27,303 nucleotides of DNA from Myxococcales bacterium (GTDB lineage: Bacteria > Myxococcota_A > Polyangia > Polyangiales > JAFGIB01), in NCBI GenBank assembly GCA_028817905.1, contig JAPPOR010000544.1, positions 1 through 27,303 of the forward strand, read 5' to 3'. The notes beneath the pieces are model-generated. The model did no database searches, was not told the origin of the DNA, and saw only the letters and a list, made by a program, of their open reading frames with translations. This document shows, piece after piece, positions 1 to 24,788 of this stretch. Both the position numbers and the translations under genes were made by a program. The first letter of the stretch is position 1. Every line of letters starts with the position of its first letter.

Positions 1-54
1 GCGGAGTCGAGCAGTTGTGCGAGGGCGCGTGATTTGGTGATGGATGCGGGCTAG
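1..54. repeat. Left copy of a ~54-bp inverted repeat, truncated by the window edge (partner at 9535..9588)
   Basis: The reverse complement of 1-54 is ctagcccgcatccatcaccaaatcacgcgccctcgcacaactgctcgactccgc. Positions 9535-9588 read ctagcccgcatccatcaccaaatcacgcgctctcgcacaactgctctccgc. The first 30 nt are identical, then there is one substitution and a 3-bp indel. Confidence 0.8.
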
Positions 55-776
55 GCCTGGTTCGCCTTTTGCTCATCATGTTCCACCTTGCCGTCCCGCA
101 GGTGAACGACGCGGGCGGCGTGGGCGACCACGCGCGCGTCGTGGGTCGAAAAAACAAAGGTCATCCCGCGTTCGGTCCGCAGGCGACGCATCATCGCTAT
201 CAGTGCTTCGGCGTTGTCGCTGTCCAGGTTGGCGGTGGGCTCGTCGGCGAGCACCAGGCGCGGCTCTCCGGCGACCGACCGCGCCACCGCGACCCGCTGC
301 TGCTGTCCACCGCTGAGCTCGCCTGGCCGCCGGTCCGCGAGTTCGGCAAGCCCCAACTCCGCCAGGGCCCGCTGTGCTCGCTTGCGGCGCTCGCGGGCTC
401 CGATGCCGCGCAGCTCCAGCACGAACTCGACGTTTTCCTGGGCGGTCAGGACCGGTACCAGGTTGTACGCTTGAAAGACGAAACCGATCTCCGAAAGGCG
501 CAGCCTGGCTCGCTGCCGCTTCGTGAGCGATCCCAGGTCCCGCCCCAGGACAGTGACCGACCCGGATGTCTGACGGTCCAGCGCGCCGATGAGGTTGAGC
601 AAGGTGGTCTTCCCGCTGCCGCTGGGGCCGACCAGCGCCGTGAACTCGCCTGCCCCAATCGCCAGGTCGACGCCCCGAAGAGCGTGGACCGAGATGTCAC
701 CTTGACCGAAGGTCTTCGTGACACCCCGCATGTGCAACAGCGCGCGTGTGGCATCCTGATCGTGGCTATGGGTCAT
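51..776 (-). CDS. ABC transporter ATP-binding protein (LolD/MacB/FtsE-like)
   Basis: The ORF 51..890 translation contains Walker A GPSGSGKTT, the ABC signature LSGGQQQRVAVAR and Walker B LVLADEPT. The start was placed at the internal Met (MTHSHD...). That gives an ATG at 776..774 overlapping the upstream permease stop (TGA 775..773) as ATGA. Confidence 0.85.
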   Translation of the reverse strand: MTHSHDQDATRALLHMRGVTKTFGQGDISVHALRGVDLAIGAGEFTALVGPSGSGKTTLLNLIGALDRQTSGSVTVLGRDLGSLTKRQRARLRLSEIGFVFQAYNLVPVLTAQENVEFVLELRGIGARERRKRAQRALAELGLAELADRRPGELSGGQQQRVAVARSVAGEPRLVLADEPTANLDSDNAEALIAMMRRLRTERGMTFVFSTHDARVVAHAARVVHLRDGKVEHDEQKANQA

Positions 777-2014
777 TGGGCTACTCGCAAGGCATCGGCG
801 GGGTCCGTACGGGTGGCGTACAGCGCCGGGTACAGGGCGGCGAATACTGTTGCGGTCAGGGATAGCAGCAGGGCATGGGGCAGGATCCATGGGCCGAGGT
901 CCGCGTACATGACGGGGTCCAAGAGCACACCGCTCAGCGCCATGTCGCCCTCGCCCATCATCTCGGCCAGGCGAATGCCAGACGTGGCGAAATGGTAGAC
1001 AACCGGCAATCCGATGAGCAGGCCCAAGGCCGCACCGATGGCGCCCACACTGAGTGACTCGGCGAGCACGATCGCCGCCATCTGCGCGGCACTGACACCC
1101 AGGGCCGACAGGACCGCGAACTCTTTGCGCCGCTCGAGGACCGAGGCGAGCTGCGCACTCATCACCCCCAGCAGGACCAGCACGATCACAAGACCCACGG
1201 TCACGCGTGCAAAGCCCTGATCCATCTGGTAGCCCGCGAGTAACTCGGGCGCGACCTCGTGCCAGTGCAGGATTCCCTCCGGGGGAGCAACGACTTCTGA
1301 GAGCGCAAGGGCGATGCGGTCGGCTTGCCGGTAGTCCGACAGCAGAATCGTGACCTCGCCGGCGCCCTGTGCGCCGCTGAGCTGCACGGCGTCTGCCCGC
1401 GGCACCTGGACCAGGCCTCCATCGATGTTGTCGCTACCGGTCTCGACCACCCCGACGATTCTCAGCAGCGCCGATTGCATCTGTCCCGAGGCGTCCATCG
1501 CCGTGACCAGCACCTCGTCGTCGAGCGCACCGTCGAGACGCGTCAGGAGCTTCTTGCCCACCACCGCCGTACCGCGCTCGCCGGGCCGCAGGTAGCGTCC
1601 CTGCGCGATCCGCCGCACGAACCTCAGGGCCGCGGGTTCGCTTGCGGGATCGACCCCCACGACCTCGGCCGCCGCGACCCGTGTTCCCAGTCCCAGCAAG
1701 CCCTGGACGCGGGTGCGCGGCGTGGCCACCGCCACGCCCGGCAGCGAGCGCGCGTGCGCCAAGGTCTGTTCCCAATTCTGCAGCCGCAAGCTTCGGTCGC
1801 GCCGGGCTTGCCAGCCGGCTGGCACAACCCGCAGATGGCCCGCGCCGCATTCGGCCGCAGCACGAATGATCATCTCCTCTTCGCCCCGGATCCATGCCAG
1901 CGTGATCAATCCGATGGCGCAGCCGATGCCCACGCCCAGGGCCGAAAGCAGCGTCCGGCGGACGTGGCGACCGAGTCCGCGCACGGCGTAGCGGGCCGAT
2001 AGAGCAAACCTCAT
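773..2014 (-). CDS. ABC transporter permease, FtsX-like (LolC/E-MacB family), second of two
   Basis: N-terminal TM helix, a large periplasmic region, then C-terminal TM helices typical of FtsX/MacB permeases. The start was trimmed from ORF 773..2341 to the Met (MRFALSARYAV...) at 2014. It overlaps the upstream gene's stop as ATGA (cat 2012-2014, tca 2011-2013). Confidence 0.8.
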   Translation of the reverse strand: MRFALSARYAVRGLGRHVRRTLLSALGVGIGCAIGLITLAWIRGEEEMIIRAAAECGAGHLRVVPAGWQARRDRSLRLQNWEQTLAHARSLPGVAVATPRTRVQGLLGLGTRVAAAEVVGVDPASEPAALRFVRRIAQGRYLRPGERGTAVVGKKLLTRLDGALDDEVLVTAMDASGQMQSALLRIVGVVETGSDNIDGGLVQVPRADAVQLSGAQGAGEVTILLSDYRQADRIALALSEVVAPPEGILHWHEVAPELLAGYQMDQGFARVTVGLVIVLVLLGVMSAQLASVLERRKEFAVLSALGVSAAQMAAIVLAESLSVGAIGAALGLLIGLPVVYHFATSGIRLAEMMGEGDMALSGVLLDPVMYADLGPWILPHALLLSLTATVFAALYPALYATRTDPADALRVAQ

Positions 2015-3246
2015 GCGCGCATCGCCTCCACGGGCTGCAGGGTGGCGGCGTGCAAGGCCGGCCACAGAGACGCTAGCAGGGACGTGACAATGACAGCCGA
2101 AAGGCCGCTGGCGACGGTTTGAAACGAAGTGCGCGGAAACACGACGACGCCGAAGTTCATGCCGGCCAAGCTGAGGTTCTGCAGTTCGTTGCCAGCGCCT
2201 CCGAGGCCGGCGAAGTCGACGCCGGACGAGGCGAGGAGGGCGTTTCCGGCGATTCCCAAGGTCGTTCCCAGCCCGGCACCGAGGGCTCCCAACAGCAGTG
2301 CTTCGAGCGTCAACATGCCCACGATTCGCTGGGGTGAGCATCCGAGGGCCAACAACATGCCGAGCTCGTGGTTGCGCTCGAACGCCGCCATCAACATCGT
2401 GTTGGCGACCCCCGCGGCGGCCGCCACGAATACCAACAGCAGCAGGATCCAGGTAAAGCCGCTGGTCATCTGCAGCATCGACGTGAGCTCGGGCGCAAGC
2501 TCATCCCAGCGCTTGATCTCGAGCTCGCCGAAGCTGGGCAGACCGCCGACACTGGCGGCCAGGTGCGGGGCCCCATCGGGGTCGGCGCCATGCAACGTGA
2601 TCTCGTGCGCCTCGTCGTCCATCACGAACAGGCTTTGGGCCGCTGGGAGTGTCATGATCAGACCCGTGCTTTCGACCAACTCCACGGGGCTGGGGAGCAG
2701 GCCGGCGACCTCATATAGGTCGTTGGCGATCGAGCCGTCAGCTGCCTGCCCCACAATCGCGAGTTCATCGCCTTCCTTGACGTTCATGCGGTGCGCGAGA
2801 CTCTTGCCGATCAGAACCTGGTCCGATCGCAGGTTGGTGAGCTCGGGTCGCGTGCCCAAAAGACCCCGGGCACCCGCTTCTCGCTTCGGTTGCAGTCCCA
2901 CCACGACGCCCATGAAGCCCTGCTCGCCGAGGGCGACCAGGACCGGCGCGTAGATGCGCGCGGAGGCTTCGGGTGCTTCTGGAAGTCCGCGCAGCTGGCT
3001 GAGCTTGTCACCGAGGTGCGTGATCGTAAGGTCCATGCTCTGCTGCTCGCGATAGTCGTGCGCGTGAACCTGCACATGACCGAGCATCGGGCCGGTGAAC
3101 GCGTCCACCATGGCGTCCGTGTATCCGTTCATCAGGCCGTCCATGAGAAGCACCCCGGCTTGGGCCAGGGTGATGGCGAATAGACCGAGAAAGGTTCGAC
3201 GGAAGTTGCGCCCGAGGTTGCGTCGCGCGATACGGAGCGTCGTCAT
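2011..3246 (-). CDS. ABC transporter permease, FtsX-like (LolC/E-MacB family), first of two
   Basis: 411 aa starting MTTLRIARRNLGRNFRRTFLGLFAITLAQ, with FtsX-type topology (N-terminal TM, periplasmic domain, three C-terminal TMs). The ATG at 3246..3244 overlaps the upstream stop at 3245..3243 (ATGA). Confidence 0.8.
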   Translation of the reverse strand: MTTLRIARRNLGRNFRRTFLGLFAITLAQAGVLLMDGLMNGYTDAMVDAFTGPMLGHVQVHAHDYREQQSMDLTITHLGDKLSQLRGLPEAPEASARIYAPVLVALGEQGFMGVVVGLQPKREAGARGLLGTRPELTNLRSDQVLIGKSLAHRMNVKEGDELAIVGQAADGSIANDLYEVAGLLPSPVELVESTGLIMTLPAAQSLFVMDDEAHEITLHGADPDGAPHLAASVGGLPSFGELEIKRWDELAPELTSMLQMTSGFTWILLLLVFVAAAAGVANTMLMAAFERNHELGMLLALGCSPQRIVGMLTLEALLLGALGAGLGTTLGIAGNALLASSGVDFAGLGGAGNELQNLSLAGMNFGVVVFPRTSFQTVASGLSAVIVTSLLASLWPALHAATLQPVEAMRA

Positions 3247-4025
3247 CGGGCACGCTCGAGCCGCTGAAGCGAGAACGTACCTGGCGGAACCTCGGCGTCG
3301 AAGTCGATGTCGAGGTAGCGCATGACCGTTCGCTTGCCCGGCTTTCCGACGGGCGTCAGCGTCATGCGTGTCGGGATGCGGTGCCCGTCCACGACGCGCA
3401 CCTGGTCGAATACGAGGGTGCGCGCATGCCGCATGCGGCGGTCAAAGTAGTGCGCTCGCCGCGGCAAGGTAAGATCCCCGTTGAAGGTGATGTCGATGCG
3501 CTTCCAGAGGCCCACGGTTTTTGCCTTCGCATCCAGCCGCACGAGCTTGCCCTCGTTGTCTGGCGCGTCGGTGGCCGCCGTGGCATGGAAGTCGTCTGCG
3601 TAGCTCGAGGCACGCACGAGGTCGTCATTGGTGAAGTCGCTGCCCATCCAGGGCGACAACATGGCGGACGGGGGAATACGGATGGTGCGCGCGATCCTGG
3701 GCAGGTAGTTCCAGAGATTCTTTTCCACGCGCAAGGTCGCCGTGCCCTTGTCGCGGGCGGGCGACTCGATCACGATAAGGGCCCGGTCCTTGCCCCGCGT
3801 CAGCGCCCGCATGCGGACGGTGCGCGAACGCCGTTTGGTCTCTACCGTCATCTCGATCCGAGCGATGCTGCTTTCCGATCGGTACAGCTCGTCTAGGCGT
3901 CGCAGGGCGGCCTGGAGCTCGCCTTGGCTCTTGCCCCCGGCATGCGCGTCCTGCCCGATCGCAGTGGCGGCGAGGGCACATGTCAGGGCCAGGGCGCCCG
4001 TGGCCCGCATCGTCCACGTACTCAT
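3243..4025 (-). CDS. Periplasmic LolA-like / outer-membrane lipoprotein-sorting-like protein with signal peptide
   Basis: Internal start MSTWTMRATGALALTCALAATAIGQDAHA looks like a signal peptide. The ~260-aa mature domain carries a WMGSDFTNDDL motif, recalled from LolA-like (PF17131-type) proteins that often accompany FtsX/RND exporters. Its ATG 4025..4023 overlaps the TetR stop 4024..4022 (ATGA). The long N-terminal extension of ORF 3243..4754 is rejected because it overlaps the TetR gene in another frame and is Arg/Pro/Gly-rich. Confidence 0.65.
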   Translation of the reverse strand: MSTWTMRATGALALTCALAATAIGQDAHAGGKSQGELQAALRRLDELYRSESSIARIEMTVETKRRSRTVRMRALTRGKDRALIVIESPARDKGTATLRVEKNLWNYLPRIARTIRIPPSAMLSPWMGSDFTNDDLVRASSYADDFHATAATDAPDNEGKLVRLDAKAKTVGLWKRIDITFNGDLTLPRRAHYFDRRMRHARTLVFDQVRVVDGHRIPTRMTLTPVGKPGKRTVMRYLDIDFDAEVPPGTFSLQRLERAR

Positions 4026-4657
4026 GGGCTCTCCCGGTTCACCGAGGGCGGAGCCGACAGGTCTCGGCACAGCTCGAGGGTCTTGAGCGATAGATGCTCG
4101 ACGTCCGCGGGGGAAAGGTCGTCGAGCCGGTCGGCGAACCACCGGTCGAGCCCCAGCAGAAGATGCGTCAGTCCGGTCGCGAGCATGTCGGTGGGCACGT
4201 CGTCTCGCACGGCACCCAGCGTTTGCCCGTGCTCGAGGGTCTCGATCACCGCAGCCTGTAGTTGCTGTCGGACGCGGTCGACCACCTGCTGGGCCCCGCT
4301 GTCGCCGTACAGGCAACGTCCCAGGGCGGAAAGGTCCGGCTCCGCAAACGTGAGCTCGGCGGCCCGCATGCCCCAGGCCCCCAGCGATTGCCAGAAGCCG
4401 TCCGCATCGTGGGCCGGCGGCGGCGGCCCGACGCGCGCGATGACGTCCGCGACCAGTTGGTCGATGACCGCACCGAACAGGTCCGCCTTGTCGGCGAAGT
4501 AGTAGTACATCGCGCCTTTGCTCACCTCGGTGGCCGCGATGATGCGGTTGTAACTCGCGCGCTCGAACCCGTGGGTGGCGAACTCCTTTCGCGCTGCCCG
4601 AAGAAGCTGATTGCGCTTGGTTTCCGGGAGCTTGAAGTAGCGTTCGAGGGGCGGCAT
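4022..4657 (-). CDS. TetR/AcrR family transcriptional regulator
   Basis: The N-terminal HTH region LLRAARKEFATHGFERASYNRIIAATEVSKGAMYYYFADK matches the TetR_N signature. Its 211-aa size is typical. It is the first gene of the ATGA-coupled exporter operon. Confidence 0.85.
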   Translation of the reverse strand: MPPLERYFKLPETKRNQLLRAARKEFATHGFERASYNRIIAATEVSKGAMYYYFADKADLFGAVIDQLVADVIARVGPPPPAHDADGFWQSLGAWGMRAAELTFAEPDLSALGRCLYGDSGAQQVVDRVRQQLQAAVIETLEHGQTLGAVRDDVPTDMLATGLTHLLLGLDRWFADRLDDLSPADVEHLSLKTLELCRDLSAPPSVNRESP

Positions 4658-4670
4658 CCGGGGCTCGTCC

Positions 4671-4727
4671 TAGACCAGTGAGGTTCTCTACCACTGGTCC
4701 AACCTTTGGTTCGACCAGTGGTCTAAA
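4671..4727. promoter_or_regulatory. Putative TetR operator array: GACCAGTG-N11-CACTGGTC plus the compact palindrome GACCA-G-TGGTC
   Basis: The inverted repeats lie 14-70 bp upstream of the TetR start codon (4657, minus strand). Half-site TAGACCAGTG at 4671-4680, its inverse CCACTGGTC at 4691-4699, and the palindrome GACCAGTGGTC at about 4713-4723. Confidence 0.45.
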
Positions 4728-4748
4728 AATGTCGCAAGTCCGCCGGGC

Positions 4749-4754
4749 TGTCAA
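4749..4754 (-). promoter_or_regulatory. Candidate -35 hexamer (TTGACA on the minus strand) for the TetR-exporter operon
   Basis: Perfect TTGACA on the minus strand. About 17-18 bp downstream is a weak -10 (CATTTT/ATTTTT) that overlaps the second operator palindrome. Confidence 0.25.
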
Positions 4755-4758
4755 GTCG

Positions 4759-4880
4759 TTCCGGTCTCCGGTTCCGGGTCCGGTCCCGGCTTCCGGCTTC
4801 CGGCTTCCGGCTTCCGGCTTTCGGCTTCCGGTCCCGGTCCCGGCTTCCGGCTTCCGGCTTCCGGCTTCCGGCTTCCGGCG
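4759..4880. repeat. Heptanucleotide tandem repeat (GGCTTCC)n, about 17 units with a few 6-nt and variant units
   Basis: Directly visible: ...ccggcttccggcttccggcttccggctttcggcttccggtcccggtcccggcttccggcttccggcttccggcttccggcttccggcgg. It begins right after the TAA stop (4882-4884) of the upstream minus-strand gene and ends just upstream of the candidate -35. The unit length is not a multiple of 3. Confidence 0.9.
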
Positions 4881-4881
4881 G

Positions 4882-7398
4882 TTATTCGCAGCCGGGTTGG
4901 TTGCCGCAGGTGAAGCGCACGTGCAGGTGGTCCAGATGGCCGGGGACGTGCTGCACCAGCGGCTGTCCTTGCCCGGGAGCTCGCGGGTATTCCAGCCAGG
5001 CCGCCAGATCGGTTTCGGAGATCAGGTTGTGCTTGCGCGCGTGGTCGTAGAGCAGCTTCTGCAGAGAGCGGTCGACGTAGATGGCCTCGACCTCACCGGT
5101 TGCCCTGAGCAAGTGCAACATGCGCCAGGTGCGGCGCAAGTGCAGATTGCCCGCGCCCATGTCCCGCCAATTGTAGGGCTGGCCGGGGGCTGGGAGCTGG
5201 GGATAGCCCAGGTCCACGTCGCGCCCCGACTGGTGACTGCCGTGGGGTGGCAAGGGCCCTCCCTTGCGCTGTGAGAGCGTCCCGACCAGGATCGGATCGG
5301 CTTGCGGTTCCAGCTTGGGCCACGCCCGCAGGATCGCGTCGAGCAACCCGATCGTGCGGCGTGTGGCCCACGTGCGCGCTCGCTTGGCCTTGATGATGCG
5401 GCCGTCGCCGGGTGGTAGCGGAGCGGAGCCCTGGATGCGCCCTCGGCTGGGGCTGCCGATCGAGCGGCTTTCCTTGCCTGGGACGTGTCGGTAGATCACC
5501 ACCTCGGTGCCGGCCTTGAGCTCCTTGTCCAGGTCCAGCTCCTGATTCAGCGCCTCCATCTCGCTGTGATAGATCTCGTATAGGTTGGCCACGAAGCGCG
5601 CGGTTCCCCCGCGTTTGATGGCGTACTTGACCTCGGTCGGTTGACGCTTCTGCCACGCTTCGATCGAGCGCGCCGCTGCGCGGATGCCGCGCGGGTCAGG
5701 TGGTGCGCTGGTGTCGTCGGCCGCCGCCGCCTGCGCTTGTGTCGATGAGGTGACCGCCGGCTTGTCGACCTCGGCAGAGGCCCCCTCTACCACCGATGCG
5801 CGCTCGCTGTGGGCGCGCACGATCCCGAGCGGCTCGTCCGTCACCACGACCGTACTACCCGAAAACGCGGTGCCTTCGGTCGACAGGCCGTGCCAGCCAC
5901 TGGGGACCGCTGGTAGGGTTCCGCTGAACATCCGGTGTGCGTCGGTGGGGCTTAGATTGATGCAGCCATGGGAGCGCGGGATGCCAAACCGCGTGTGCCA
6001 GAACGCAGCGTGCAGCGCGAAGCTTCCCTGAAAGTACTGGGTCCACGGCACATCTTCCACGCGGTAGCGGTTGTCGCCCGCCTCTGGTCCCAGGTCGGCC
6101 ATCGTGTCTGTCACGCGCTTGCGCCGGATCTGAAACACGCCCGTAGGGGTCGCGTGGTCCGCGATGCCGCTGGACATCAAGGTCGCGAACACGGGTGTGT
6201 CTCCTTCGTAGAGCACGGCGGTTTGCTGATCGAGGTCCAGATGCACCCACGGGTGGTCCGCTGGCACGCCCCTGGGCCGCGGCACGGCGTGGGCGACTGC
6301 GGCGAACCAAGCGCGCAAGTATCGGGGGCCGTTCGGCGTCTGGAGCTCGTGCATGATCCGCTCGCCCATGCGACGCGTCCCTAGCCAGGTGTCGAGCAAC
6401 GTCTGCCGCTCGATCTCGGGCAGGTCTGGGTCTGTGCGAAAGACCGTTGTGCCATCGTGACGTATAAACATGCGCTTCGGCTGGGCGGTGCGCACGGCCC
6501 AGGCGATTGGGAGGCGGCGATCGCCGGAGAGCTCTACCCCGTGGAAGTCGTGGCCGGTCCTGGGCTCGAGCCGGGCCTGCTTGATGTAGCGACCCTGGGT
6601 GGTGCGGACAAAGCGCCGCGAGGCCCGGACCTCCGTGCCGCTGACGGCTACGAAGAACCCGCGGTCCAGGTAGCGGGCGGTCACCTCGGTTCCGGGTGGA
6701 CCCCGATCGAGTTCGCCTGCGAGATAGCGTGCCGCCCGCTTGGGCTTCTTCTCGAGTAGCTCGTGGTAGTGCTGGGCTTTGGCGGCCGCCGCCCGTTGCT
6801 CCGAGCGGGACGGGAGCCGATGGTAGGAGGGCACGGTCGCCTCCTTGACGAAGTAGTAGTCATAGGGCAGGGGCTCATCGCGCGCCGGAGGTGGCAGCAC
6901 CATGGCACCGCGGGCGCGGGCCCTTTGTGCTTGCCCGTCCTTCCAGCCTCCGTCCGTGGGGGCCTCCAGAACGATGGCCGCGTCCTGGACTTCGAGGCCC
7001 TCGCGCGGGCACACGTAGCCGGTGGGGTGGATGCGGTAGTAGCCACCGTAACATTTCCGCCCTTCGGTTCGCTCCTCGGAGAGCCGCACACGCGAGCCCT
7101 GGCGGAGCCATCCGACGACCGCCGTCTCCGGATCGGGCCTCTGATAGACCTTGAGCTCGACCGTCGTTACCGCCCCGTGCTTGGGGTATTCGGCTTCCAT
7201 CTTCTCGCGGGCCAGCCGCTGCGCTTCGGCCCGTGCGGCTGCCTGCCGCCGGGCCTCCCGCTCGGCTTCCGTCTCGGGCACCTCTTCGGCGGACAACGCG
7301 CCCGGCTGCCCCGACTCGGCTCCATCGTCTCCGCAGGCGGACACGAGCACAATGCTGGCTATCGCCACAAGCGCGACTGCCCACGAACCACTGCCCAT
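4882..7398 (-). CDS. Lipoprotein fusing SH3b-like, L,D-transpeptidase (YkuD) and MepA-like (peptidase M74/LAS) murein endopeptidase domains
   Basis: Lipoprotein signal peptide MGSGSWAVALVAIASIVLVSAC. SH3b-like segment VYQRPDPETAVVGWLRQGSRVRL...GYYRIHPTGYV. YkuD catalytic motif RSHGCINLSP. C-terminal MepA-like zinc motifs HGSHQSGRDVDLGY and GHLDHLHVRF. The start was chosen at the Met preceding the lipobox (ATG 7398..7396). The ORF-track start at 7512 would run through the 11-bp repeats. Confidence 0.75.
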   Translation of the reverse strand: MGSGSWAVALVAIASIVLVSACGDDGAESGQPGALSAEEVPETEAEREARRQAAARAEAQRLAREKMEAEYPKHGAVTTVELKVYQRPDPETAVVGWLRQGSRVRLSEERTEGRKCYGGYYRIHPTGYVCPREGLEVQDAAIVLEAPTDGGWKDGQAQRARARGAMVLPPPARDEPLPYDYYFVKEATVPSYHRLPSRSEQRAAAAKAQHYHELLEKKPKRAARYLAGELDRGPPGTEVTARYLDRGFFVAVSGTEVRASRRFVRTTQGRYIKQARLEPRTGHDFHGVELSGDRRLPIAWAVRTAQPKRMFIRHDGTTVFRTDPDLPEIERQTLLDTWLGTRRMGERIMHELQTPNGPRYLRAWFAAVAHAVPRPRGVPADHPWVHLDLDQQTAVLYEGDTPVFATLMSSGIADHATPTGVFQIRRKRVTDTMADLGPEAGDNRYRVEDVPWTQYFQGSFALHAAFWHTRFGIPRSHGCINLSPTDAHRMFSGTLPAVPSGWHGLSTEGTAFSGSTVVVTDEPLGIVRAHSERASVVEGASAEVDKPAVTSSTQAQAAAADDTSAPPDPRGIRAAARSIEAWQKRQPTEVKYAIKRGGTARFVANLYEIYHSEMEALNQELDLDKELKAGTEVVIYRHVPGKESRSIGSPSRGRIQGSAPLPPGDGRIIKAKRARTWATRRTIGLLDAILRAWPKLEPQADPILVGTLSQRKGGPLPPHGSHQSGRDVDLGYPQLPAPGQPYNWRDMGAGNLHLRRTWRMLHLLRATGEVEAIYVDRSLQKLLYDHARKHNLISETDLAAWLEYPRAPGQGQPLVQHVPGHLDHLHVRFTCGNQPGCE

Positions 7399-7444
7399 TA
7401 AGGCCGTAAGCGTAGCAGAACCTGTGGGGCCCTGTCCCGCCCCA

Positions 7445-7488
7445 GGGGCACGCAAGGGGCACGCAAGGGGCACGCAAGCGGCACACAG
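7445..7488. repeat. Direct 11-bp repeat array GGGGCACGCAA x3 plus one degenerate copy (GCGGCACACAG)
   Basis: Visible in sequence at 7445-7488. It lies in the divergent intergenic region between the lipoprotein gene (start 7398, minus) and the FAH gene (start 7643, plus). Confidence 0.85.
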
Positions 7489-7642
7489 TGATGGCCCGCG
7501 CGCGCAAAACATTTAGCCAGCGGTCGCTGACAACGGTGACCGTGGGGTGCATAAGTGTTAGCCAAGAGGGCTGTCAAGCGAGCTCGTGCACACTTTGCCG
7601 ATGGGCAGGGGGCACGATGCGACCCAGCACAGGAGCGATGCG

Positions 7643-8536
7643 ATGAAGTTGGCCATGTTCACACACGCGGGCGGAACCCGGTTGGGGGTCGTGCAGGGGG
7701 ATATGATCGCCGATCTGGCGACTGCCGATCCAGCGTTGCCGCCGGAGCTCAAACGGCTGCTCGAACTCGGTCCAGCCGCGATGGAACGTGCTCGCGAGGC
7801 GGCCAAAAAGGCGCGGGACCTGTTGCCGCTGTCCAACGTGCGTTTGGAAGCGCCGATCGACCGGCCTAACAAGTTCATCGCGGTAGGTCTCAACTACGCG
7901 GATCATGTGGCTGAGACCGGCAGCGACAGGCCGGAGTTTCCCACCATTTTCAACAAGCAGAACACCTGTGTGAATCGCACCGGTGGCCCTGTGCACTTGC
8001 CACGGGTGTCTCCCGACATGTTGGACTACGAGGGTGAGATGGCGTTCGTGATCGGGCGGCGTTGCCGACACGTGCCGCGTGCGCGGGCTGCCGAGGTGAT
8101 CGCGGGCTACTGCATCGTCAATGACGTTTCGGTGCGCGATTGGCAGTTGCGTACGCCGACCATGACGATCGGCAAGTCCTTCGACACCCATGGACCGATC
8201 GGCCCGTGGCTGACCACGGCCGACGAGGTGGGCGATCCGCACGTCCTGTCACTGCGCACGACCGTCAACGGAGAGCAACGTCAAGCTAGCAACACAAGCC
8301 ACCTCATCTTCAACTGCTTCCAGCTGGTTGAGCACCTTTCCACGGCCTTCACGCTCGAGCCAGGGGACGTGATTTCGACCGGGACACCCTCGGGTGTGGG
8401 CCTCGCGATGAAGCCGAGGTGCATGCTCAAGGCAGGGGACGTGGTCCGGATCGAGATCGAAAGGCTCGGTGCGATCGAAAACCAGATCATCGACGAGCCC
8501 GGTGACACGGTCAGCTTGGGTGCGTTGAACGGATAG
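7643..8536 (+). CDS. Fumarylacetoacetate hydrolase (FAH) family protein (HpcE/HpaG 2-keto-4-pentenoate/oxohept-ene-dioate hydratase-like)
   Basis: FAH-family metal-binding motif DYEGEMAFVIG and a C-terminal GDVISTGTPSGVG motif. AGGAG at 7631-7635 sits 7 nt upstream of ATG 7643 (MKLAMFTHAGG...). The ORF-track start at 7586 has no ribosome-binding site. Confidence 0.85.
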   Translation: MKLAMFTHAGGTRLGVVQGDMIADLATADPALPPELKRLLELGPAAMERAREAAKKARDLLPLSNVRLEAPIDRPNKFIAVGLNYADHVAETGSDRPEFPTIFNKQNTCVNRTGGPVHLPRVSPDMLDYEGEMAFVIGRRCRHVPRARAAEVIAGYCIVNDVSVRDWQLRTPTMTIGKSFDTHGPIGPWLTTADEVGDPHVLSLRTTVNGEQRQASNTSHLIFNCFQLVEHLSTAFTLEPGDVISTGTPSGVGLAMKPRCMLKAGDVVRIEIERLGAIENQIIDEPGDTVSLGALNG

Positions 8537-8568
8537 GCATGCCGTAGCCCTGCGTTTCGGGACGCTGG

Positions 8569-9516
8569 CTACGCATCACCTTCCGAGTGCGCGACGGAAT
8601 CCTTGACCTGGTCCAGCAGCCAGCGCGTTGCCAGGTCGTCGTGCGGGCGCCGGACGGCCAAAACATGGATCGGGTTGGGGCGAAAGGGCAGCTCGTGCAG
8701 GGCCAAACCGAAGCGCTGGGCGTGGGCGCGAGCGAGGCGGTGTGGGACCACAGCGACCGCGTCCGTGTTCCCGACCACCGCCAGGGCCATCAGAAAGCGT
8801 GGCACGGCCGCGACCGTTCGATGCGGCCAAGCCTTGCGGCTGTAGGAGCCGACGGCCGGTGACCGGAAGTCACCGCCGACCGATACCTGTACGTGGCCGA
8901 GTTCGGCGTAGAGGGCGCGCGTGATCTTCTTTCGCAGGCGCGGATGGCCGCGCCGAGCGATCATGCAGTAGTGGTCGTCGAACATGGGCTCGGCGGCGAA
9001 GCCCTCGATGCTTCCCAAGAATTGGCCCAAGGCGAGGTCGACGTCGTCCCGCTCCAATGCAGACAGGGCGTCCTGACCGAGCCGCTGGCTGAACGCAAAG
9101 CGCGCCCGCGGCGCCGTCCGAGCGAAGCGAGCCAACAGCGGTGGCACCACCAGGGTTGCGAGGAAGTCGGGGGCCGCCAGGCGGAAGCTGCGCGTGGTGG
9201 TGCTGGGGTCGAAGCTCGTCGCAAGCCCGAGCGCGTCCCCGAGTCCATCTAGCAGCGCGTCGATTCGCGGGGCGAGCTCCAGTGCGTGACGCGTGGGTTC
9301 GAGACCGTGGGGTCTGCGTACGAAGAGTTCATCATCAAACAGCTCGCGCAGGCGAGCCAGGGCGTGGCTCACGGCGGACTGGCTCATGAACAGGCGCTCC
9401 GCGACCACCGTCGTGCGCCGCTGGCGCAGCAGTTCACGAAGCACCAGGAGCAACCCGCCGTCGATCCGCTTGATCTTGTTCTTGTCGATATCTTTCATCA
9501 AATGATTTCGGTACAT
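8569..9516 (-). CDS. LysR family transcriptional regulator
   Basis: N-terminal HTH IDGGLLLVLRELLRQRRTTVVAERLFMSQSAVSHALARLRE matches the LysR LDLNLL...SQPAVS pattern. The C-terminal substrate-binding domain is ~300 aa. An alternative in-frame ATG lies at 9498 (MKDIDKNK...). The 5' end sits in an unusually AT-rich patch. Confidence 0.8.
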   Translation of the reverse strand: MYRNHLMKDIDKNKIKRIDGGLLLVLRELLRQRRTTVVAERLFMSQSAVSHALARLRELFDDELFVRRPHGLEPTRHALELAPRIDALLDGLGDALGLATSFDPSTTTRSFRLAAPDFLATLVVPPLLARFARTAPRARFAFSQRLGQDALSALERDDVDLALGQFLGSIEGFAAEPMFDDHYCMIARRGHPRLRKKITRALYAELGHVQVSVGGDFRSPAVGSYSRKAWPHRTVAAVPRFLMALAVVGNTDAVAVVPHRLARAHAQRFGLALHELPFRPNPIHVLAVRRPHDDLATRWLLDQVKDSVAHSEGDA

Positions 9517-9534
9517 GAGATATCGGGAGAGTGC

Positions 9535-9588
9535 TAGCCCGCATCCATCACCAAATCACGCGCTCTCGCACAACTGCTCTCCGCGCCG
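9535..9588. repeat. Right copy of the ~54-bp inverted repeat
   Basis: See the left copy. This copy sits 19 bp upstream of the LysR start codon. The left copy abuts the TAG stop (51-53) of the ABC ATPase gene. Confidence 0.8.
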
Positions 9589-9783
9589 CTTTCGCCTCAG
9601 TCAAAGGCACAGTGAGTATTCCCTCCGTCACCGATAGCCCTGCGAAGCCGATCACTTGCACGAGCATCACGTGCCTTGGTGAATGATCCGAGCTAGCCCG
9701 GATGACTCATGACTTCGGGGTCGGGCCCAACAAGGCCGCGGGCAACGGGTAAGGGGCAAGGAAGGGGGGGCGGACCGAAGCGG

Positions 9784-12700
9784 CTACGATGGCCGTGTGC
9801 CGCGGTCGGTGCGCGTCACGTGGCCCGCTTCGGCCATCGGCCGTGCGTCGCCGGAGCGGACCAGTGCCGAGGCCACGGCGGAACACTGGGAGGCGATCCC
9901 TTCCCCCGTTGGGTCTTCGCACGGGGAGGCGGTCGTGAACAGGCCCACGAACATCAGCTCGCTGCGGACCTTGCAGCTGAGCACCATGACCCGGTGCTCG
10001 GTGCCGCGTTCGTCGACATAGGTCGCAGCGCCCGGCACCGTCAGCATGCGGGTCGCTTGTTCTTCCCGGGGGGGCGACGCGTTCGGCAGCTCATCGCCAA
10101 TGTGCTCGGCGAAGAAGAACCGTGCGAACGCTCGGTCCGCGTTCGTCGGTGGTGCCTGCTCCTGGCTCGCAACCAGGGACAGTTCACCGTCGCGTCCAAC
10201 CAGGTAGAGATGACCTCCCGCCGCGTGCGTGATGTTGCACAGAAGGTGCAGGGCCTGTCGCGCTCGAGCTTCCGGGTTGTGGCAAGTAGCGAGCTTCTTG
10301 GCATAGGCGCAAGCATCCGCGGTCAAGGTAGCGGTGTCGGCGCCGAACACCGACGCCTCAAAGTTGCTCAGGCCCAAGGTGATCTCCAGTCCGTTTCCCC
10401 GGGCTTCGTCCACCAGGCGCACGAGTTCGGGCGCTGCAGTCGGATTCGACGACTCACCGCGCCCGTGCAACGCCAACAGGGCGTAGCGCCTGGCGGCTTC
10501 CTCGTCGCGGGCCCACACGGCGATCTGTGCTCTCACGTGGAAGCTCGCGACGAGGTGCAGTCCACGGATGTCGTGGGCCTCGGTCCACTCGATCAGACGT
10601 TCGACCCGCGCTGCAGCGTGTTCGATGTCCCCGGCGCGGGCCTCCGCTAGCGCAAGGGCTCGGGCGATCGCCAGCCTCGAGACATCGATGTGTTCCGCAT
10701 GGCAGCGCTCGAGCGCTTCGCGAGCCAACTCGATCGCTTCGGGAAGGCGTCCCTGGGCCCTTCGGACGCTGACCAATCCAGCCACCGCCATCGCCCACGT
10801 GTCTTCCGACGAAAGGCGTCCCGGTTTGCCGGGTCGGCACAGCTCCAGTGCCTCTTGGAGCGGCGCCTCGGCCTGGTCCTCTTTGCCCTTGAAGAGCTGG
10901 AAGTAGCCGGTTGCCACATTGGCCGCGGGCGTCCAACGAGGGCTGCGCTTGGCCAGGGCCGACAGGCCCTCCATCGCGCGGTGAACCGATCCGAGGTCAC
11001 TCGCAAGGATCCCGGCTTCCAGGTCCGCGTGCCACCGTGGGACCAGCACGTGTCGGACATTCGAACGCAGTGCCAGCAGTTCGGCCTGCTTGCGAAACTC
11101 GTTGGCCCCAGGACCATCTCCCTGCATCAGGCGCGTGACCGCACGCGATTGCATCGCGTTGACGGCGTAGAGGCGATCGTCTGCGACCCGCTGGGCCCAC
11201 TCGTGGGCCGACTCACGCGCGAGCCGGGCCTCCAGCATCCCGATGAGATGCGCCAGCCCGTTCCGAATCGACTCCAGATAGGTCACCTGATCCCCTTCGA
11301 TCGTTTCCAGCGCTTCATGGGTGGTGACCAGGCGCCGGTGGGCGGCCAAGGTCCGGCCCAGGCACAGCGCCTCCTGGATCCCCAGGCAGTCCTGCCACAT
11401 GGCGTGGGCCGCGGGCGACAGGGGGGCGAGCGGCTCGAGCAGGGCAGGCAGGCTCGATAGCAGGTCCGTGTCCGCCACGCGGGAGCCGGTTGTGACCGCC
11501 GGAATCACGTAGAAGCAGAGCATCTTGATCGCTTCGTCAACCGGGTACACCCGCTCGCGCTCAGGGGTCTCTTCAAAGCGTGTGATCGCCCGTGTGAGCG
11601 CGCGCTGCAAGCGCTCGTGGGGATCGAGGGAGGCGGGCAGTGCGCGGTAGTCGAGCAGACCCGCGTCCCGCTCGAGCTGCGCGAGCCAGGCCGGGGCGTT
11701 GCGGTAGAAGACGCCTTCGTCTTGGGCGAGGATCGCGGCCGAGCACAACCCGAAGCGCAGGTCGTGCTCGGCGCGCTTGGAGCGACCGCTCGCGAGCAGC
11801 TGGACAAGGGCGCCCTCGCCCGTGGCAGCCACCCGATCGAAGTCCAGCTCGAGCGCCATATCGACCTGGTCGTCAAAGACCAAGGCGCACGTCGACAGTA
11901 CGTCGAGCGCCTCCTCCGAGCGTCCCGCCTCGTTGAGGTGGTGCGCGACCAGAAAACCCAGATCCTTGCCCTTCTGCTGTCTGCGAAACTCGGCCAGCGA
12001 CGTATGGGTCGCGCGTGCGTCAGCGGCACTCATGAGTGCTCGCAACGTGCCGGCTAGGGTGCGGTGGCGCAGGCTGTAAAAAAGGCCGTCGCCCTGCACC
12101 AGGTCGGCCTGCAGGAGAGCGAGCAGCGCACCTTCCAGTTGAGAGGCTGAAGCCTTGGGCGCCAGGTTGCGAAAGTCGTCGCGGCTAAGAACATCCTGGC
12201 CCAACAGTGCCAGCGCCTCGGCCAGCGTGCGGGCGAGCGGCGGGAGCCCCTCGATGCGTCGGACGAAGGCGTCCATTGCGGTAGTGGGCAGATCGTTTGC
12301 GTCCAGCTTGGCGGGCAGCGTCCACCGAGCGTCCTGGTAGTGGATGACGCCGTTGTCGACCAGATGCTGGGCCAGAGCCATGGTTTGTTGGGGACTTCCG
12401 AGCGCGACGCTGTGGATGCGGTCCGCCACAAACGCGACATTGGCGACGTCCCCGAACACGGATGCGACCAACGCGGCGCTTTCGGCAGGTGAGAGCGGGG
12501 CAAGGGTCGCCGCCTGGCCGTGCCTCGCCAGCATGTGGTAGGCGCCCGGCGCGCATTGGGTGGCATTTGGGTCAGAGGTGGTCAACAGCAGCAAGCGCTG
12601 ACGGGGGGCATCCATCGCGAGCTCCGCGAGCAGGGAAAGCGAAGGTTCGTCGATCCGTTCCAGGTCGTCGATGGTGATGGCCACCGCGTGCGTGTCGCAG

Positions 12701-14236: not shown

Positions 14237-15970
14237 ATGTGGGAAGCGATCGCGCTCGCAGCTGACCTGGGTGTCCTGACCGTCGGGTACTGGCTTTCGG
14301 ATTGGGCCATACGGGGAGGGGGCTTGTTGGGGGCGCTCGGACGCATTCGGTTGCTGCACGATGGCCCGACCGCCCTGGTCTTCATGGCGACCTATGCGGC
14401 GCTCTCGCCCCTGTGGTCATGGGAGCACGTTCCGGAAGGCGAGACGCTCCGATGGGTCGCCGCGGTGCTGGGGCTGGCGCTCGCCTGGCGCGCGGCGACC
14501 CGTGACATCGACGTGGTGCGCGGCAATCGGCAGACGCTCGTGCGCTTGCTGGTGCTCGCCAGTGCGGTCCTCACGTGGCTGTCCCCCGGGATGCTGGTCA
14601 GTACGTGCCTGCTGCTAACGACGCCGTTTGGCATGTGGCAGCACCACGCAACCCTGCCCATGCGCGTGCTTCAGGCGCTGCTGGCGTTTGTCGTGTTGCA
14701 ACCGTTGGTCAGCGGGCTCGGCGCCCTGCGAGATGCGTCGGCGCTGTTCCTGTTTCTGGTAACGATTCAGGTCTCGCACTACGTGGTGACCGCCCTGGCC
14801 AAGGGACACCTGGGTCCGCGCTGGTACTCGTGGCCGCTGGACAACCGCCTGCACCACATCGCCGCGAGCGCCTACAGTTGGGGTTGGGCGCGCTTCGTGC
14901 CCTGGGCGCGCTGGCGGCGCGTGGTCGCCGTGGTACGCGCGCTGGAGGTGCCGCTGCAAGTGGTCGTCTTCTTGCTCGAAGCGCTTTCGCCACTTGCGCT
15001 GCTGCACGCCCATGCTTCGGTCGGCTTCAGCATCGCCTTCGCCGGCTTTCACCTGGGTGTGTTCCTGCTTTCGGGTCTGCTTTTCTGGGAGTGGATCGTG
15101 ACTGACCTCGTGCTTGCGATGGCCGTCTGGCGGCTTTCCGCGGGGGCGGCCGCGGTCGCCTTTGGTCCCGGGGCGCTGTTGCTGGGGGTCGTGCTCATGG
15201 TGGCATTCCCCCTGCGTCACAGGCTTTGGCGCCCGATGTCACTCGGCTGGTGGGACACGCCCTTCACCCAGCGCATGCATTGGCGGGTGCGCGGTCGCAG
15301 TGGCGCCATGTACGGCCTATACGCGGACTTCATGGACCCCCACGAGCGCATCTACGGCAAGGTCCATGGCTACTTCCTCGCACCCGTGCCGGTCCTGACC
15401 TACCATCTTGGGGAGGCCTTTCGTCACGAGCTGCGGGACGGCTTGCGCGCGGCCGGAGGCGATCCCGGGCGGCTGGACGCGCTGCGCGAACAGTTCGGGA
15501 TCGAGCCCCGCGACGCCCGCCTGCTGGAGAACCACGAGACCTATCTTCAGCGGTTTTGTTGGGAGCTCAATCGGGGGGCTCGCAAGCATGTGCTGCCGTC
15601 GCGGTTACGCTTCCTCAAGGCCCCGGGGGGGCAGTGCTACTACTGGGGTGACTTGCCGGCGTACCGGCGCCAGGAGCCCATCGAAGAACTCGAAGTGGTC
15701 TATCGCGAGGAATACTTCGACGGCGAGGCGCTGCAGCGGCTGCGCGATGAGGTGGTGTTGCGTGTCCCGATCGAGCGAAGCTCCACGCCGCCACGGGCCG
15801 CTCGCGAGCCCACCCCCAAGGAACTCGACGATCACCTCCTTTCGTTCGCCGCTGGACGCTTGATTCGCCTACCGGGGCTGGGCGACGGGCTGGTGCACGC
15901 GGATGACGGTGTGCCGGGGTCGCGGGCGGGCGCGGCCGCCGGACCCGTTGCGCCACCCGATGAGGGTTAG
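14237..15970 (+). CDS. Polytopic integral membrane protein (at least 8 predicted TM helices in the N-terminal ~330 aa) with a C-terminal soluble domain; family not recognised
   Basis: The 577-aa ORF has many hydrophobic 20-aa stretches rich in W/L/A. The C-terminal ~230 aa is hydrophilic. It is divergent from the kinase gene across a 202-bp intergenic region. No motif is confidently assignable from sequence alone. Confidence 0.55.
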   Translation: MWEAIALAADLGVLTVGYWLSDWAIRGGGLLGALGRIRLLHDGPTALVFMATYAALSPLWSWEHVPEGETLRWVAAVLGLALAWRAATRDIDVVRGNRQTLVRLLVLASAVLTWLSPGMLVSTCLLLTTPFGMWQHHATLPMRVLQALLAFVVLQPLVSGLGALRDASALFLFLVTIQVSHYVVTALAKGHLGPRWYSWPLDNRLHHIAASAYSWGWARFVPWARWRRVVAVVRALEVPLQVVVFLLEALSPLALLHAHASVGFSIAFAGFHLGVFLLSGLLFWEWIVTDLVLAMAVWRLSAGAAAVAFGPGALLLGVVLMVAFPLRHRLWRPMSLGWWDTPFTQRMHWRVRGRSGAMYGLYADFMDPHERIYGKVHGYFLAPVPVLTYHLGEAFRHELRDGLRAAGGDPGRLDALREQFGIEPRDARLLENHETYLQRFCWELNRGARKHVLPSRLRFLKAPGGQCYYWGDLPAYRRQEPIEELEVVYREEYFDGEALQRLRDEVVLRVPIERSSTPPRAAREPTPKELDDHLLSFAAGRLIRLPGLGDGLVHADDGVPGSRAGAAAGPVAPPDEG

Positions 15971-16283
15971 CCCGGGTCATTCACGACTTACGACGCCGCC
16001 TCGCTTGTTCTTCGACTCCACAGTGCTTTCGACCCCCTGCAATACGGGCAGTATGTGGGTCGGTGGCCGACAAGCCGTGGGAAGCCGAGTCCCGACGCGA
16101 TCCGACGCGGTGTTGATGGATAGCCCGGGCCAGACCGGTGCGAGGTGAATTCTGGCCAGCCGGGCGTGGGTCACGCTGGTAGTCCCCGCGGGTGGTCACG
16201 GAAAAGCCGGGACAATCGCGATCCCCTGTTGTAGATCCAGTGCGCTTGGCGGAAACGTCGGCAGGGAAGGGGGACGTGCCTTT

Positions 16284-16976
16284 TTGCAGGAGCTGCTGGC
16301 GCAAAGCTTCGCCTATCCAACGGTCGTGTGGAGCGTGCTGCTCGGCCTCGCGTCTTTCTATTGGTTGCTTGTTCTGGTGGGCGCGGTGGGTATGGAGGTA
16401 CTGGAGGGCAGCGTGGAAGGGGCGGCCGACGCTGCCGGTGCCGCTGGCGGGGGCCTAGCTGATATCGGTGAGGCAGCCGAGGCGGCGTCCAATGCGGCGA
16501 GCGCCCTGTCCGTCTTTGCCCTGCTGCGGCGACGGCGCGCTCCCCTGACGGTCAAGTTCTCCATGGTCACCCTGCTCGGGTGGTTGAGCTGCTGGTACGC
16601 GAGTGCGTGGCTCGGCGGGTTCGTCCCGGATGCCGTGCCGGTCGTCGCCTGGGGGACCGGCCTGCTCTTGCTAACCTTGCTCCTGGCGATTCCGGTGGCG
16701 GCCACGCTGCTGATCCCCCTCGAGCCACTCTTCGATACCCATGAAGCGCGGCGCCGCGGTCATCTCGTGGGCGAGGTCGTCGAAATCGAGACCAGTCGGG
16801 TGGACCGCAAGTTCGGCCAGGCGCGGCTCGAGGACGGTCAGGCGGGGATGATTCTCCAGGTGCGCTGCGACCCGAACCGGCAGCTCAGCCGAGGCAAGCG
16901 GGCCCTGATCCTGACCTACGACGAGGAGCAGGAGTTCTACGAAGTCGAACCGTACGATGACCTGTTGCAGAAATGA
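16284..16976 (+). CDS. NfeD/YqiJ-like membrane protein (N-terminal TM region plus C-terminal NfeD-type OB-fold)
   Basis: N-terminal and central TM helices, with a C-terminal GEVVEIETSRVDRKFGQARLEDGQAGMILQVRCD beta-rich segment typical of NfeD short-form OB domains. These classically pair with SPFH/flotillin genes. The ORF-track start is a TTG at 16284, preceded by GGAAGGGGGA (16266-16275). The true start could be a downstream GTG. The stop overlaps the flotillin start (ATGA at 16973-16976). Confidence 0.7.
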   Translation: MQELLAQSFAYPTVVWSVLLGLASFYWLLVLVGAVGMEVLEGSVEGAADAAGAAGGGLADIGEAAEAASNAASALSVFALLRRRRAPLTVKFSMVTLLGWLSCWYASAWLGGFVPDAVPVVAWGTGLLLLTLLLAIPVAATLLIPLEPLFDTHEARRRGHLVGEVVEIETSRVDRKFGQARLEDGQAGMILQVRCDPNRQLSRGKRALILTYDEEQEFYEVEPYDDLLQK

Positions 16977-19054: not shown

Positions 19055-19066
19055 GCCAGGCTGAGA

Positions 19067-24690: not shown

Positions 24691-24788
24691 CCAGGGCGTG
24701 GCACGGGGGTTGCTTGAGGCAGTCCATTGGCGACCTGGTGAGTCGATACTGCATTCGGCTTGCGCGTACAGGAAAGCAGGGAGGCGAG

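Follow-up and report, generated by a model that had tools for sequence, protein, structure and literature searches.

Insertion sequences of the IS1380 family have ends starting with CC and are flanked by direct repeats of 4–5 bp, according to their ISfinder description. The piggyBac elements target TTAA and carry CCC...GGG ends, and precise excision is their hallmark. REP/RAYT repeats are imperfect palindromes of ~20–40 nt, often clustered, found with a RAYT (IS200/IS605-like) gene in the genome. The bacterial MITEs, including the Correia elements of Neisseria, the RUP elements of Streptococcus and the Tn3-derived TIMEs (PMC4133298), are small, non-coding elements with terminal inverted repeats and a target-site duplication, present in multiple dispersed, partly decayed copies that lie mostly at gene boundaries and at which short-read assemblies break. 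Within the IS1380 family, IS1247 generates a 5-bp duplication (Table 2 of PMC3281130), and piggyBac has been recognized as the eukaryotic counterpart of IS1380-like transposases (PMC5718144). In the literature that we searched, nothing specific was found on IS1380-derived MITEs, on CTAG as an IS1380 target or on MITEs of Myxococcales.

Here, we analysed a window of 27,303 nucleotides (the whole stretch of DNA under study) from a Myxococcales bacterium, in which an inverted repeat of about 54 bp brackets a 9.5-kb block holding an exporter operon and genes for a murein hydrolase, FAH and a LysR regulator. Very probably, this repeat is the overlap of two separate copies of a ~165-bp MITE that lie in opposite orientation 9.5 kb apart. 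The element shares all the features of bacterial MITEs listed above, and differs from the Correia, RUP and TIME elements in that its ends are of the IS1380 type.

Extent and anatomy of the repeated element

The inverted repeat described in the earlier note is genuine, positions 1–54 of the window being the reverse complement of 9534–9588. The two arms are 98% complementary over 46 nt (9–54 on the plus strand against 9534–9579), and after a 3-bp indel the match runs on to positions 1 and 9588. A 45-mer taken from the repeat had only two matches in the window when up to 3 mismatches were allowed, and chance matches numbered 0 in 100 dinucleotide shuffles. The suspicion that the homology extends beyond position 1 was confirmed with two contigs (L001 and L003) that carry the same ABC ATPase gene and continue past the left edge of the window. 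In these contigs the left copy (copy A) goes 113 nt further left, measures 167 nt (L001 7505–7671; L003 8582–8748) and aligns end to end with positions 9534–9696 of the window (copy B, plus strand, 163 nt and complete), which also aligns over its full length with copies C to G from other loci. The repeat length of 54 nt was therefore an underestimate: the full unit is 163–167 nt, and the left copy, represented in the window by its inner 54 nt (1–54, minus strand), is clipped at the window edge. An nhmmer search scored 179.9 bits for copy B and 47.7 bits for the window part of copy A.

The element is an imperfect palindrome with 17-nt termini (CCCGCATCCATCACCAA), bounded on both sides by CTAG. 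In copy B, the CTAG on the LysR side (9534–9537) is followed by a terminus (9538–9554, plus strand) identical to that of metagenomic IS1380-family insertion sequences. The opposite terminus is degenerate (CTCGGATCATTCACCAA; 9676–9692, minus strand), matching the consensus at 13 of 17 positions, and ends at the CTAG on the kinase side (9693–9696). The arms of copy A match over 27 nt at 89%, and a copy in another Myxococcales MAG (L010) has perfect arms of 21 nt, CTAG included. The coding content is limited to spurious ORFs of 39–40 aa that lack any Pfam domain. In its small size, its terminal inverted repeats and its lack of a transposase gene, the element conforms to a MITE.

Copy B is flanked by the start of the LysR gene (9516, minus strand) and by the stop codon of a Ser/Thr kinase gene (9784, minus strand), and two further contigs (L041 and L042) show the same arrangement. 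The distance from the copy to the LysR ATG at 9516 is 17 nt, not 19 as previously given. No site was predicted by a promoter/terminator scan of 9400–9850, the region around this copy. A second hairpin element in the window (26058–26221) bears no similarity to the MITE (local score of 17), and no further copy of it was present in the fetched loci.

Insertion sites and dispersed copies

Copy A is adjacent to the ATPase stop, as had been noted, but it does not merely abut it: the TAG sits within the terminal CTAG of the element (51–54), which forms one half of the target-site duplication. The ATPase gene (51–776, minus strand) starts with the ATG at 776, overlapping the permease stop; the longest ORF, of 279 aa, was rejected as the ATPase. 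Three relatives, with ATPases 76–85% identical, lack the element; in them a gene of ~430 aa directly adjoins the ATPase gene or overlaps it, and no copies of the terminus were found. Beyond copy A lies the ortholog of this gene, with 58–65% identity to the proteins of the relatives in a four-way alignment and 68% to that of L036 by BLASTP. In silico deletion of copy A together with exactly one CTAG produced an ORF of 438 aa, which starts with MMSKRRTRPRV inside the 3′ end of the ATPase gene. When both CTAGs were kept the ORF was 10 aa long, and when both were removed it was 56 aa long, so that only excision with one CTAG restores the interrupted ORF, as a target-site duplication implies. Because the operon is continuous in three relatives and excision restores the start of the downstream gene, the left copy is placed inside a conserved operon. 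By this reconstruction, the insertion of copy A removed the first nine codons of the downstream gene.

Copies A, B, C and D each have CTAG at both ends, and we found no direct repeats outside the flanking CTAGs. The window holds 16 CTAGs where 87 would be expected, a five-fold deficit, and 5 of the 16 bound such elements. The duplication is most simply read as 4 bp (CTAG); a 2-bp duplication of TA inside CTAG would look identical. If this reading is correct, the unoccupied site at the end of the ATPase gene would read ...CAGGCCTAGAGTCCC... A search for an empty site at sequence level in a close strain found none, as all contigs of the population have both copies. Likewise, a look-up of the LysR protein for a strain lacking copy B returned two contigs that both carry it.

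Overall, the element was recovered at seven or more loci with differing gene contexts. Using its spurious 39–40-aa ORF we retrieved 19 distinct variants, nearly all from the same sample series as the window, and the fetched contigs provided four more loci from that series, again in different gene contexts; these contigs derive from the same samples, which does not demonstrate one shared genome. A 20-mer scan of genome contigs gave, among the matches listed, the one further copy in L010; the other three of the four (L007–L009) were rejected as chance matches to the 20-mer. Some copies, retrieved independently of the CTAG pattern, have TTAG/TTGG, CTTG or decayed ends. Copies A and B share 84% identity and each is nearer to a copy elsewhere than to the other (A–D, 91%; A–C, 90%; B–C, 88%). 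Of the options raised in the earlier note, a REP/MITE-like intergenic family was essentially right, with a ~165-nt unit that has terminal inverted repeats and recurs at these loci. The many dispersed copies are also the outcome that had been named beforehand as speaking against the repeats being the termini of one large element.

Termini shared with IS1380-family insertion sequences

The 21-mer composed of CTAG and the terminus heads a complete element of 1778 nt (L023, 1468–3245), whose 475-aa ORF is assigned to the IS1380 family by its matches to NF033539 (373.6 bits; cut-off, 180) and PF13701 (E = 2e-135). The same 17-nt terminus heads the IS1380-type element of L021/L031, and that of the L038–40 element matches at 16 of 17 positions. 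The CTAG in these metagenome hits is there by construction, as the search pattern contained it. For L037 (P0133) there was no matching terminus within reach, and a protein search with the N-terminal transposase fragment of L021 returned truncated fragments only. Annotated IS1380-family elements on plasmids have related ends, CTAGCCCGCAT... in Pseudomonas putida pKF715A and CTAGCCCGAAT... in Rhizobium leguminosarum pRle248a, with CTAG-CCCGCAT... flanking the annotated elements.

Compared with the family (IS1380A, IS1247, ISEcp1, ISPme1 and the pKF715A and pRle248a copies), the MITE termini start with CCCGCAT after CTAG like the plasmid copies, and all 17 nt are common to the MITE and the metagenomic elements. 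As expected of a MITE, the terminus is therefore shared with autonomous, transposase-bearing elements (L023 and L021/L031, with L038 at 16 of 17), and the combination of CCCGC...GCGGG ends with a 4-bp CTAG flanking repeat is that of an IS1380 derivative. The 4 bp fall within the 4–5-bp range that ISfinder describes for the family, the 5 bp of IS1247 being listed in PMC3281130. In contrast, IS1380 elements are 1.6–1.8 kb long and carry a transposase, whereas the ~165-nt MITE carries none and shares no internal sequence with them. Since similarity to the recovered full-length elements is confined to the 17-nt terminus, the MITE did not arise from any of these by simple deletion. No IS1380 transposase with such ends was found by Pfam scans in the window, and none was linked to the same genome.

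Based on the shared ends, we predict that the element is mobilized in trans by an IS1380 transposase. A DDE transposase of this family made elsewhere would bind the 17-bp terminal inverted repeats and insert the element at a CTAG tetranucleotide, duplicating it. Copy A would have landed on the CTAG containing the ATPase stop, a site within the opening codons of the operon's next, overlapping gene, and copy B just upstream of the LysR gene. The earlier proposal of a non-autonomous element mobilized in trans would apply to the 165-nt copies individually and not to the 9.5-kb block. The statement that the block encodes no transposase, integrase or recombinase stands as far as Pfam scans are concerned. 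Similar to piggyBac, the MITE resides in a palindromic tetranucleotide and has CCC...GGG ends; the differences are the target, CTAG here and TTAA there, and the bacterial host.

Competing explanations and significance

The arrangement resembles IS-bounded composites such as Tn6097 (PMC3281130) in that two inverted copies of a transposable element surround cargo-like genes, and a composite non-autonomous transposon of 9.9 kb (MITE–block–MITE) could have delivered the exporter operon, murein hydrolase, FAH and LysR genes together. The copies are inverted with usable termini on each, and IS1380-family transposases mobilize adjacent DNA via alternative ends (ISEcp1, ISPme1; PMC9330008). The outer ends of both copies carry CTAG, as does every single-copy insertion, hence the flanking duplications cannot discriminate against such a unit. 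However, the flanking copies of a composite transposon should be near-identical, whereas these have diverged and each has closer kin elsewhere. One boundary also cuts a conserved operon, as in the three relatives the ATPase gene is fused to or overlaps a gene outside the block, so that the adjacency spans the left boundary, and it is this outside gene that the excision of copy A alone restores. Moreover, the block was seen at no other location, there is no empty site for a 9.5-kb unit, and G+C content is flat (65–69%) over the block and its flanks. We consider a composite unit very unlikely, and an ancient insertion of the block, with the repeats as its footprint, is contradicted by the same continuity of the operon, by copies that are not each other's closest relatives and by the flat G+C. 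Given the 84% identity, the closer copies elsewhere, the element-free relatives and the ORF restored by excision, it is highly likely that two MITEs with IS1380-type ends inserted independently and that the 9.5-kb block is resident chromosome rather than a mobile unit.

A structured element selected by the host (REP-like, an RNA hairpin, a terminator or a regulatory site) rather than derived from a transposon would be in keeping with a long imperfect palindrome located in intergenic regions beside gene ends and starts. The palindromic architecture, which suits a MITE as well, comprises 56 predicted pairs, and a folding energy of −41.5 kcal/mol (z = −7.3) was computed for the perfect copy. Nevertheless, the fold of copy B is not more stable than that of shuffled sequence (z = −0.8), most of the variation among copies disrupts predicted pairs, with only 1 of the 56 being compensatory, and the covariation term is unfavourable (+2.84). 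Rfam, at gathering thresholds, had no matches over the whole window. With termini identical to those of transposase-bearing IS1380 elements, copies that stand singly rather than in clusters and a length of ~165 nt, far above that of a REP unit, the element does not fit the REP/RAYT pattern either, and we find a host-selected structure very unlikely. The left copy might also have arisen in assembly, as a chimeric contig end induced by the repeat. The window begins inside the element, the same ATPase gene is carried by seven contigs of which four among the six listed likewise stop within the element, and L002 shows a gap of Ns at copy B. Such breaks are the expected product of a dispersed repeat, though, and two independent assemblies (L001 and L003) continue uninterrupted across copy A to the ortholog lying downstream, as L041 and L042 do across copy B, which makes an artefact highly improbable. 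Finally, the repeat might have been the 3′ coding end of a duplicated gene: read in the frame ending with TAG, the 3-bp indel preserves the codon register and the one substitution (AGG to AGA) leaves the amino acid unchanged. This reading, to which we give virtually no probability, is refuted by the right copy, where a TGA 21 codons upstream interrupts the frame, and by an alignment that continues for 110 more nt through a non-coding palindrome; the remaining copies also lie in unrelated contexts.

Beyond the two independent insertions, three further readings have between them a small chance of being right. Insertion by this IS1380-type lineage and its MITEs could be strictly limited to CTAG, which would make them a bacterial equivalent of the TTAA-specific piggyBac. 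The 9.5-kb segment could be invertible by recombination between the two inverted copies or, by analogy with ISEcp1-type transposases acting on surrogate ends, mobilizable in trans via the outer ends. In addition, an outward-facing ATG in the terminus (ATG-C[G/T]G-GCT-AG|N) may serve as the new start of the decapitated downstream gene (432 aa), with a predicted N-terminus of MLARV..., in which case the MITE would be a donor of translation starts.

The main value of these results is corrective: the 9.5-kb block does not warrant annotation as a mobile island, because its apparent terminal repeats are, in all likelihood, two unrelated insertions of a dispersed 165-bp element. The analysis documents, for uncultured Myxococcales, a MITE family whose ends are of the IS1380 type and offers a clear example of a MITE landing on a stop codon within an operon and cutting off the first nine codons of the next gene. 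The element also explains why assemblies break at these sites in this population. The CTAG target, together with the CCC/GGG ends, parallels piggyBac and may interest researchers working on the IS1380/piggyBac superfamily.

A CTAG-bounded palindromic unit and its dispersed copies

The earlier note described inverted repeats of about 54 bp bracketing a 9.5-kb block of the window. The repeat is real and chance is excluded: positions 9-54 of the plus strand pair with 9534-9579 as an inverted repeat of 46 nt (98% complementary), which with a 3-bp indel extends to positions 1 and 9588, and a 45-mer from it had only two sites in the window at ≤3 mismatches and none in 100 dinucleotide-preserving shuffles. 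Its extent, however, had been underestimated, since the window edge cuts the left copy. Public contigs encoding exactly the ABC ATPase of the window numbered seven (six examined), all from the metagenome sample series ROBB21-1. Four of the six stop within the repeat and a run of Ns interrupts one at the right copy, but contigs L001 and L003 read through it and carry a 167-nt sequence downstream of the ATPase stop codon. This complete left copy (copy A) aligns over its full length with 163 nt at window positions 9534-9696 (copy B), and the homology ends exactly at CTAG on both sides, which places the true boundary sought to the left of the window. The unit is therefore 163-167 nt long, and the 54 nt first seen are the visible third of copy A. 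Its terminal inverted repeats read CTAGCCCGCATCCATCACCAA ... TTGGTGATGGATGC[G/T]GGCTAG, and it is an imperfect palindrome over most of its length. There is no sign that the palindrome is selected as an RNA structure, because only 1 of 56 predicted pairs is compensatory (with an unfavourable covariation term), shuffled sequence folds as well as copy B does, Rfam gave no match to the element, and neither a promoter nor a terminator came up at copy B in simple scans.

Gene callers at times annotate a spurious ORF of 39-40 aa within the element. Used as a probe, this ORF recovered 19 distinct variants, 18 in ENA assemblies and one in an NCBI Myxococcales MAG. Four ENA variants, all from the ROBB21-1 series, were looked up and yielded four additional loci whose gene contexts are unrelated (LysR/CYTH, an amidohydrolase-like gene, seryl-tRNA synthetase and a CHAP-domain gene), on contigs with a G+C content (63-65%) similar to that of the window. 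Pairwise identity among seven loci is 77-93% and one end has decayed in several copies, so that the family is not the product of a recent burst. Copies A and B are 84% identical, compared with 91% for A-D, 90% for A-C and 88% for B-C (C and D being copies at other loci); A and B are not a matched pair.

We also observed a related subfamily on contig L052 (1774-1936; terminus CTAGCCCGGATGATTCATGAAC), where a main-family copy lies 37 nt away. This variant terminus is similar to what is seen at the degenerate right end of copy B (CTAGCTCGGATCATTCACCAA) and in a partial match at L010 2725-2788. When L043, L045 and L046 are compared with L044, or L052 with L053, one flank of the element is common and the other differs, reflecting either assembly chimeras at the repeat or real rearrangements between strains at the MITE. 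In L043 the final 7 nt of the element are missing.

Ends in common with IS1380-family insertion sequences

We scanned species-representative genomes with a terminus pattern that had no CTAG in it. Among the matches listed was a third complete copy, in another Myxococcales MAG (L010, 447-612), with perfect 21-nt ends and bounded by CTAG; the other three rows were chance matches. A metagenome scan with the 21-mer (CTAG plus terminus) gave 21 loci, at which CTAG is circular evidence, being part of the pattern. At nearly all of these loci, 76-127 nt separate a contig end from the match, which is directed off the contig, a signature of a multicopy repeat. Here the terminus heads longer elements rather than the 165-nt unit. 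One of these, in L023, is complete (1778 nt): it has the terminus at either end, with one mismatch, and lies between two CTAGs. The 475-aa product of its ORF belongs to the IS1380 transposase family, with matches to NCBIfam NF033539 (373.6 bits; cut-off 180) and Pfam PF13701 (E = 2e-135). Two more, internally different IS1380-type elements have the same terminus (L021/L031, identical; L038-L040, 16/17). The L023 transposase is ~50% identical to its closest annotated relatives; among these are copies on Pseudomonas putida pKF715A and Rhizobium leguminosarum pRle248a, whose ends are CTAGCCCGCAT... and CTAGCCCGAAT..., respectively. Beyond the 17-nt terminus, we found no sequence common to the 165-nt unit and the full-length elements recovered.

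This terminus is common to transposase-bearing elements, and the 165-nt unit is therefore a MITE that has the ends of a single IS1380-family insertion sequence lineage. It has the testable defining features of both a MITE and an IS1380-family derivative, and the suggestion of a MITE-like family was thus right, the dispersed unit having IS1380-type ends. In the mechanism we infer, the 17-bp ends would be recognised by a DDE transposase of the IS1380 family that is provided in trans and would insert the element at CTAG.

Insertion of copy A into an operon and status of the 9.5-kb block

The ABC ATPase gene (51-776, minus strand) starts at an ATG overlapping the stop codon of the upstream permease; a longer 279-aa ORF is absent from records and was rejected. 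In three relatives (L032, L034 and L036) the ATPase is 76-85% identical and is followed, after a 13-nt gap or with a 1- or 20-nt overlap, by a gene of 428-478 aa. This gene is the ortholog of the one lying just beyond copy A in L003 (58-65% identity in a four-way alignment; 68% to L036 by BLASTP), and none of the three ATPase loci contains the terminus. Removing copy A from L003 in silico while leaving exactly one CTAG restored a 438-aa ORF that begins ATG ATG, 29 nt within the ATPase 3' end, and whose N-terminus (MMSKRRTRPRV...) resembles those of the relatives; the ORF was 10 aa long when both CTAGs were kept and 56 aa when both were removed. Copy A therefore inserted into the CTAG holding the ATPase stop codon, within a pre-existing operon, and cut the first nine codons off the next gene (~430 aa). 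This identifies the target-site duplication as CTAG or its TA core; no other direct repeats were found outside the CTAGs. Just left of window position 1 (L001 7661, L003 8738), an ATG in the terminal repeat (ATG CTG GCT AG|A) shares the reading frame of the decapitated gene, and gene callers place the start there (MLARV...). The consensus terminus has the same ATG, facing outward. The in-element ATG may or may not be the cellular start.

The 9.5-kb block is not a unit. It had been proposed as a composite element or as the footprint of an ancient insertion; its left boundary, however, lies within an operon, since copy A interrupts one that already existed, and the unmatched copies A and B (84% identical) do not fit a composite. 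G+C is flat over the region, and the reported lack of a transposase, integrase or recombinase inside the block extends by Pfam to any mobility gene in the whole window. The synteny check proposed earlier was informative on one side: operon adjacency spans the left boundary in the three relatives; at their distance, synteny is lost outside the operon, and with it any such comparison at the right boundary. Every contig of this population carries copy B, and no close-strain empty site for the element was found among them. IS1380-family transposases can move adjacent DNA via surrogate ends (PMC9330008), which leaves a small residual possibility that copies A and B could act together; we saw no sign of past joint action here.

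Other window features and relation to known elements

A single 503-aa ORF at 3243-4754 was rejected in favour of the two genes called on L002-L004, LolA-like (3243-4025) and TetR (4022-4657), so that the exporter operon comprises TetR, LolA-like, two MacB-type permeases, ATPase and the ~430-aa protein. Just before the TetR start, the palindrome AGACCACTGGTCGAACC...GGTTGGACCAGTGGT (4660-4720, minus strand) looks like a candidate TetR operator. Between the TetR and YkuD/M74 peptidase genes, the heptamer TTCCGGC has 18 tandem copies (4759-4879), ~8 in L003 and N gaps in L001 and L002, so the array length is variable or unresolved. The 11-mer AGGGGCACGCA has 3.7 tandem copies (7444-7484) near the YkuD/M74 ORF 5' end. 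A plus-strand gene run (14237-24598) encodes 577-, 230- and 693-aa products without Pfam matches, then an 1843-aa protein in which Pfam recognises DUF3686 ('ATPase involved in DNA repair', 666 bits) along with DUF7902 and AAA/AAA_5; a role in defence or repair is possible for this module.

Directly after the stop codon of a trypsin-like protease gene (24714-26057) lies a second, unrelated 164-nt element (26058-26221) with CTAG on either side. Its terminal inverted repeats (CTAGTACAACGGTTCG...) span 38 nt and are 87% complementary, and the predicted fold is a long hairpin of -52.6 kcal/mol (z = -6.8). In sequence it is unlike the IS1380-type MITE, and the loci we fetched contained no additional copy of it; it probably belongs to a different MITE family that targets CTAG or TA. 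The window has 16 CTAG sites where 87 would be expected, a five-fold deficit, and five of these 16 sites form boundaries of hairpin elements.

The transposon piggyBac has a TTAA target and CCC...GGG ends, which the palindromic 4-bp target (CTAG) and CCC...GGG ends of the element parallel. In prokaryotes, piggyBac has its counterpart in the IS1380 family (PMC5718144). A limited literature search, and hence weak negative evidence, found no report of IS1380-derived MITEs or of MITEs in Myxococcales. The element is of an ordinary kind, and adds a member to the known class of MITEs.
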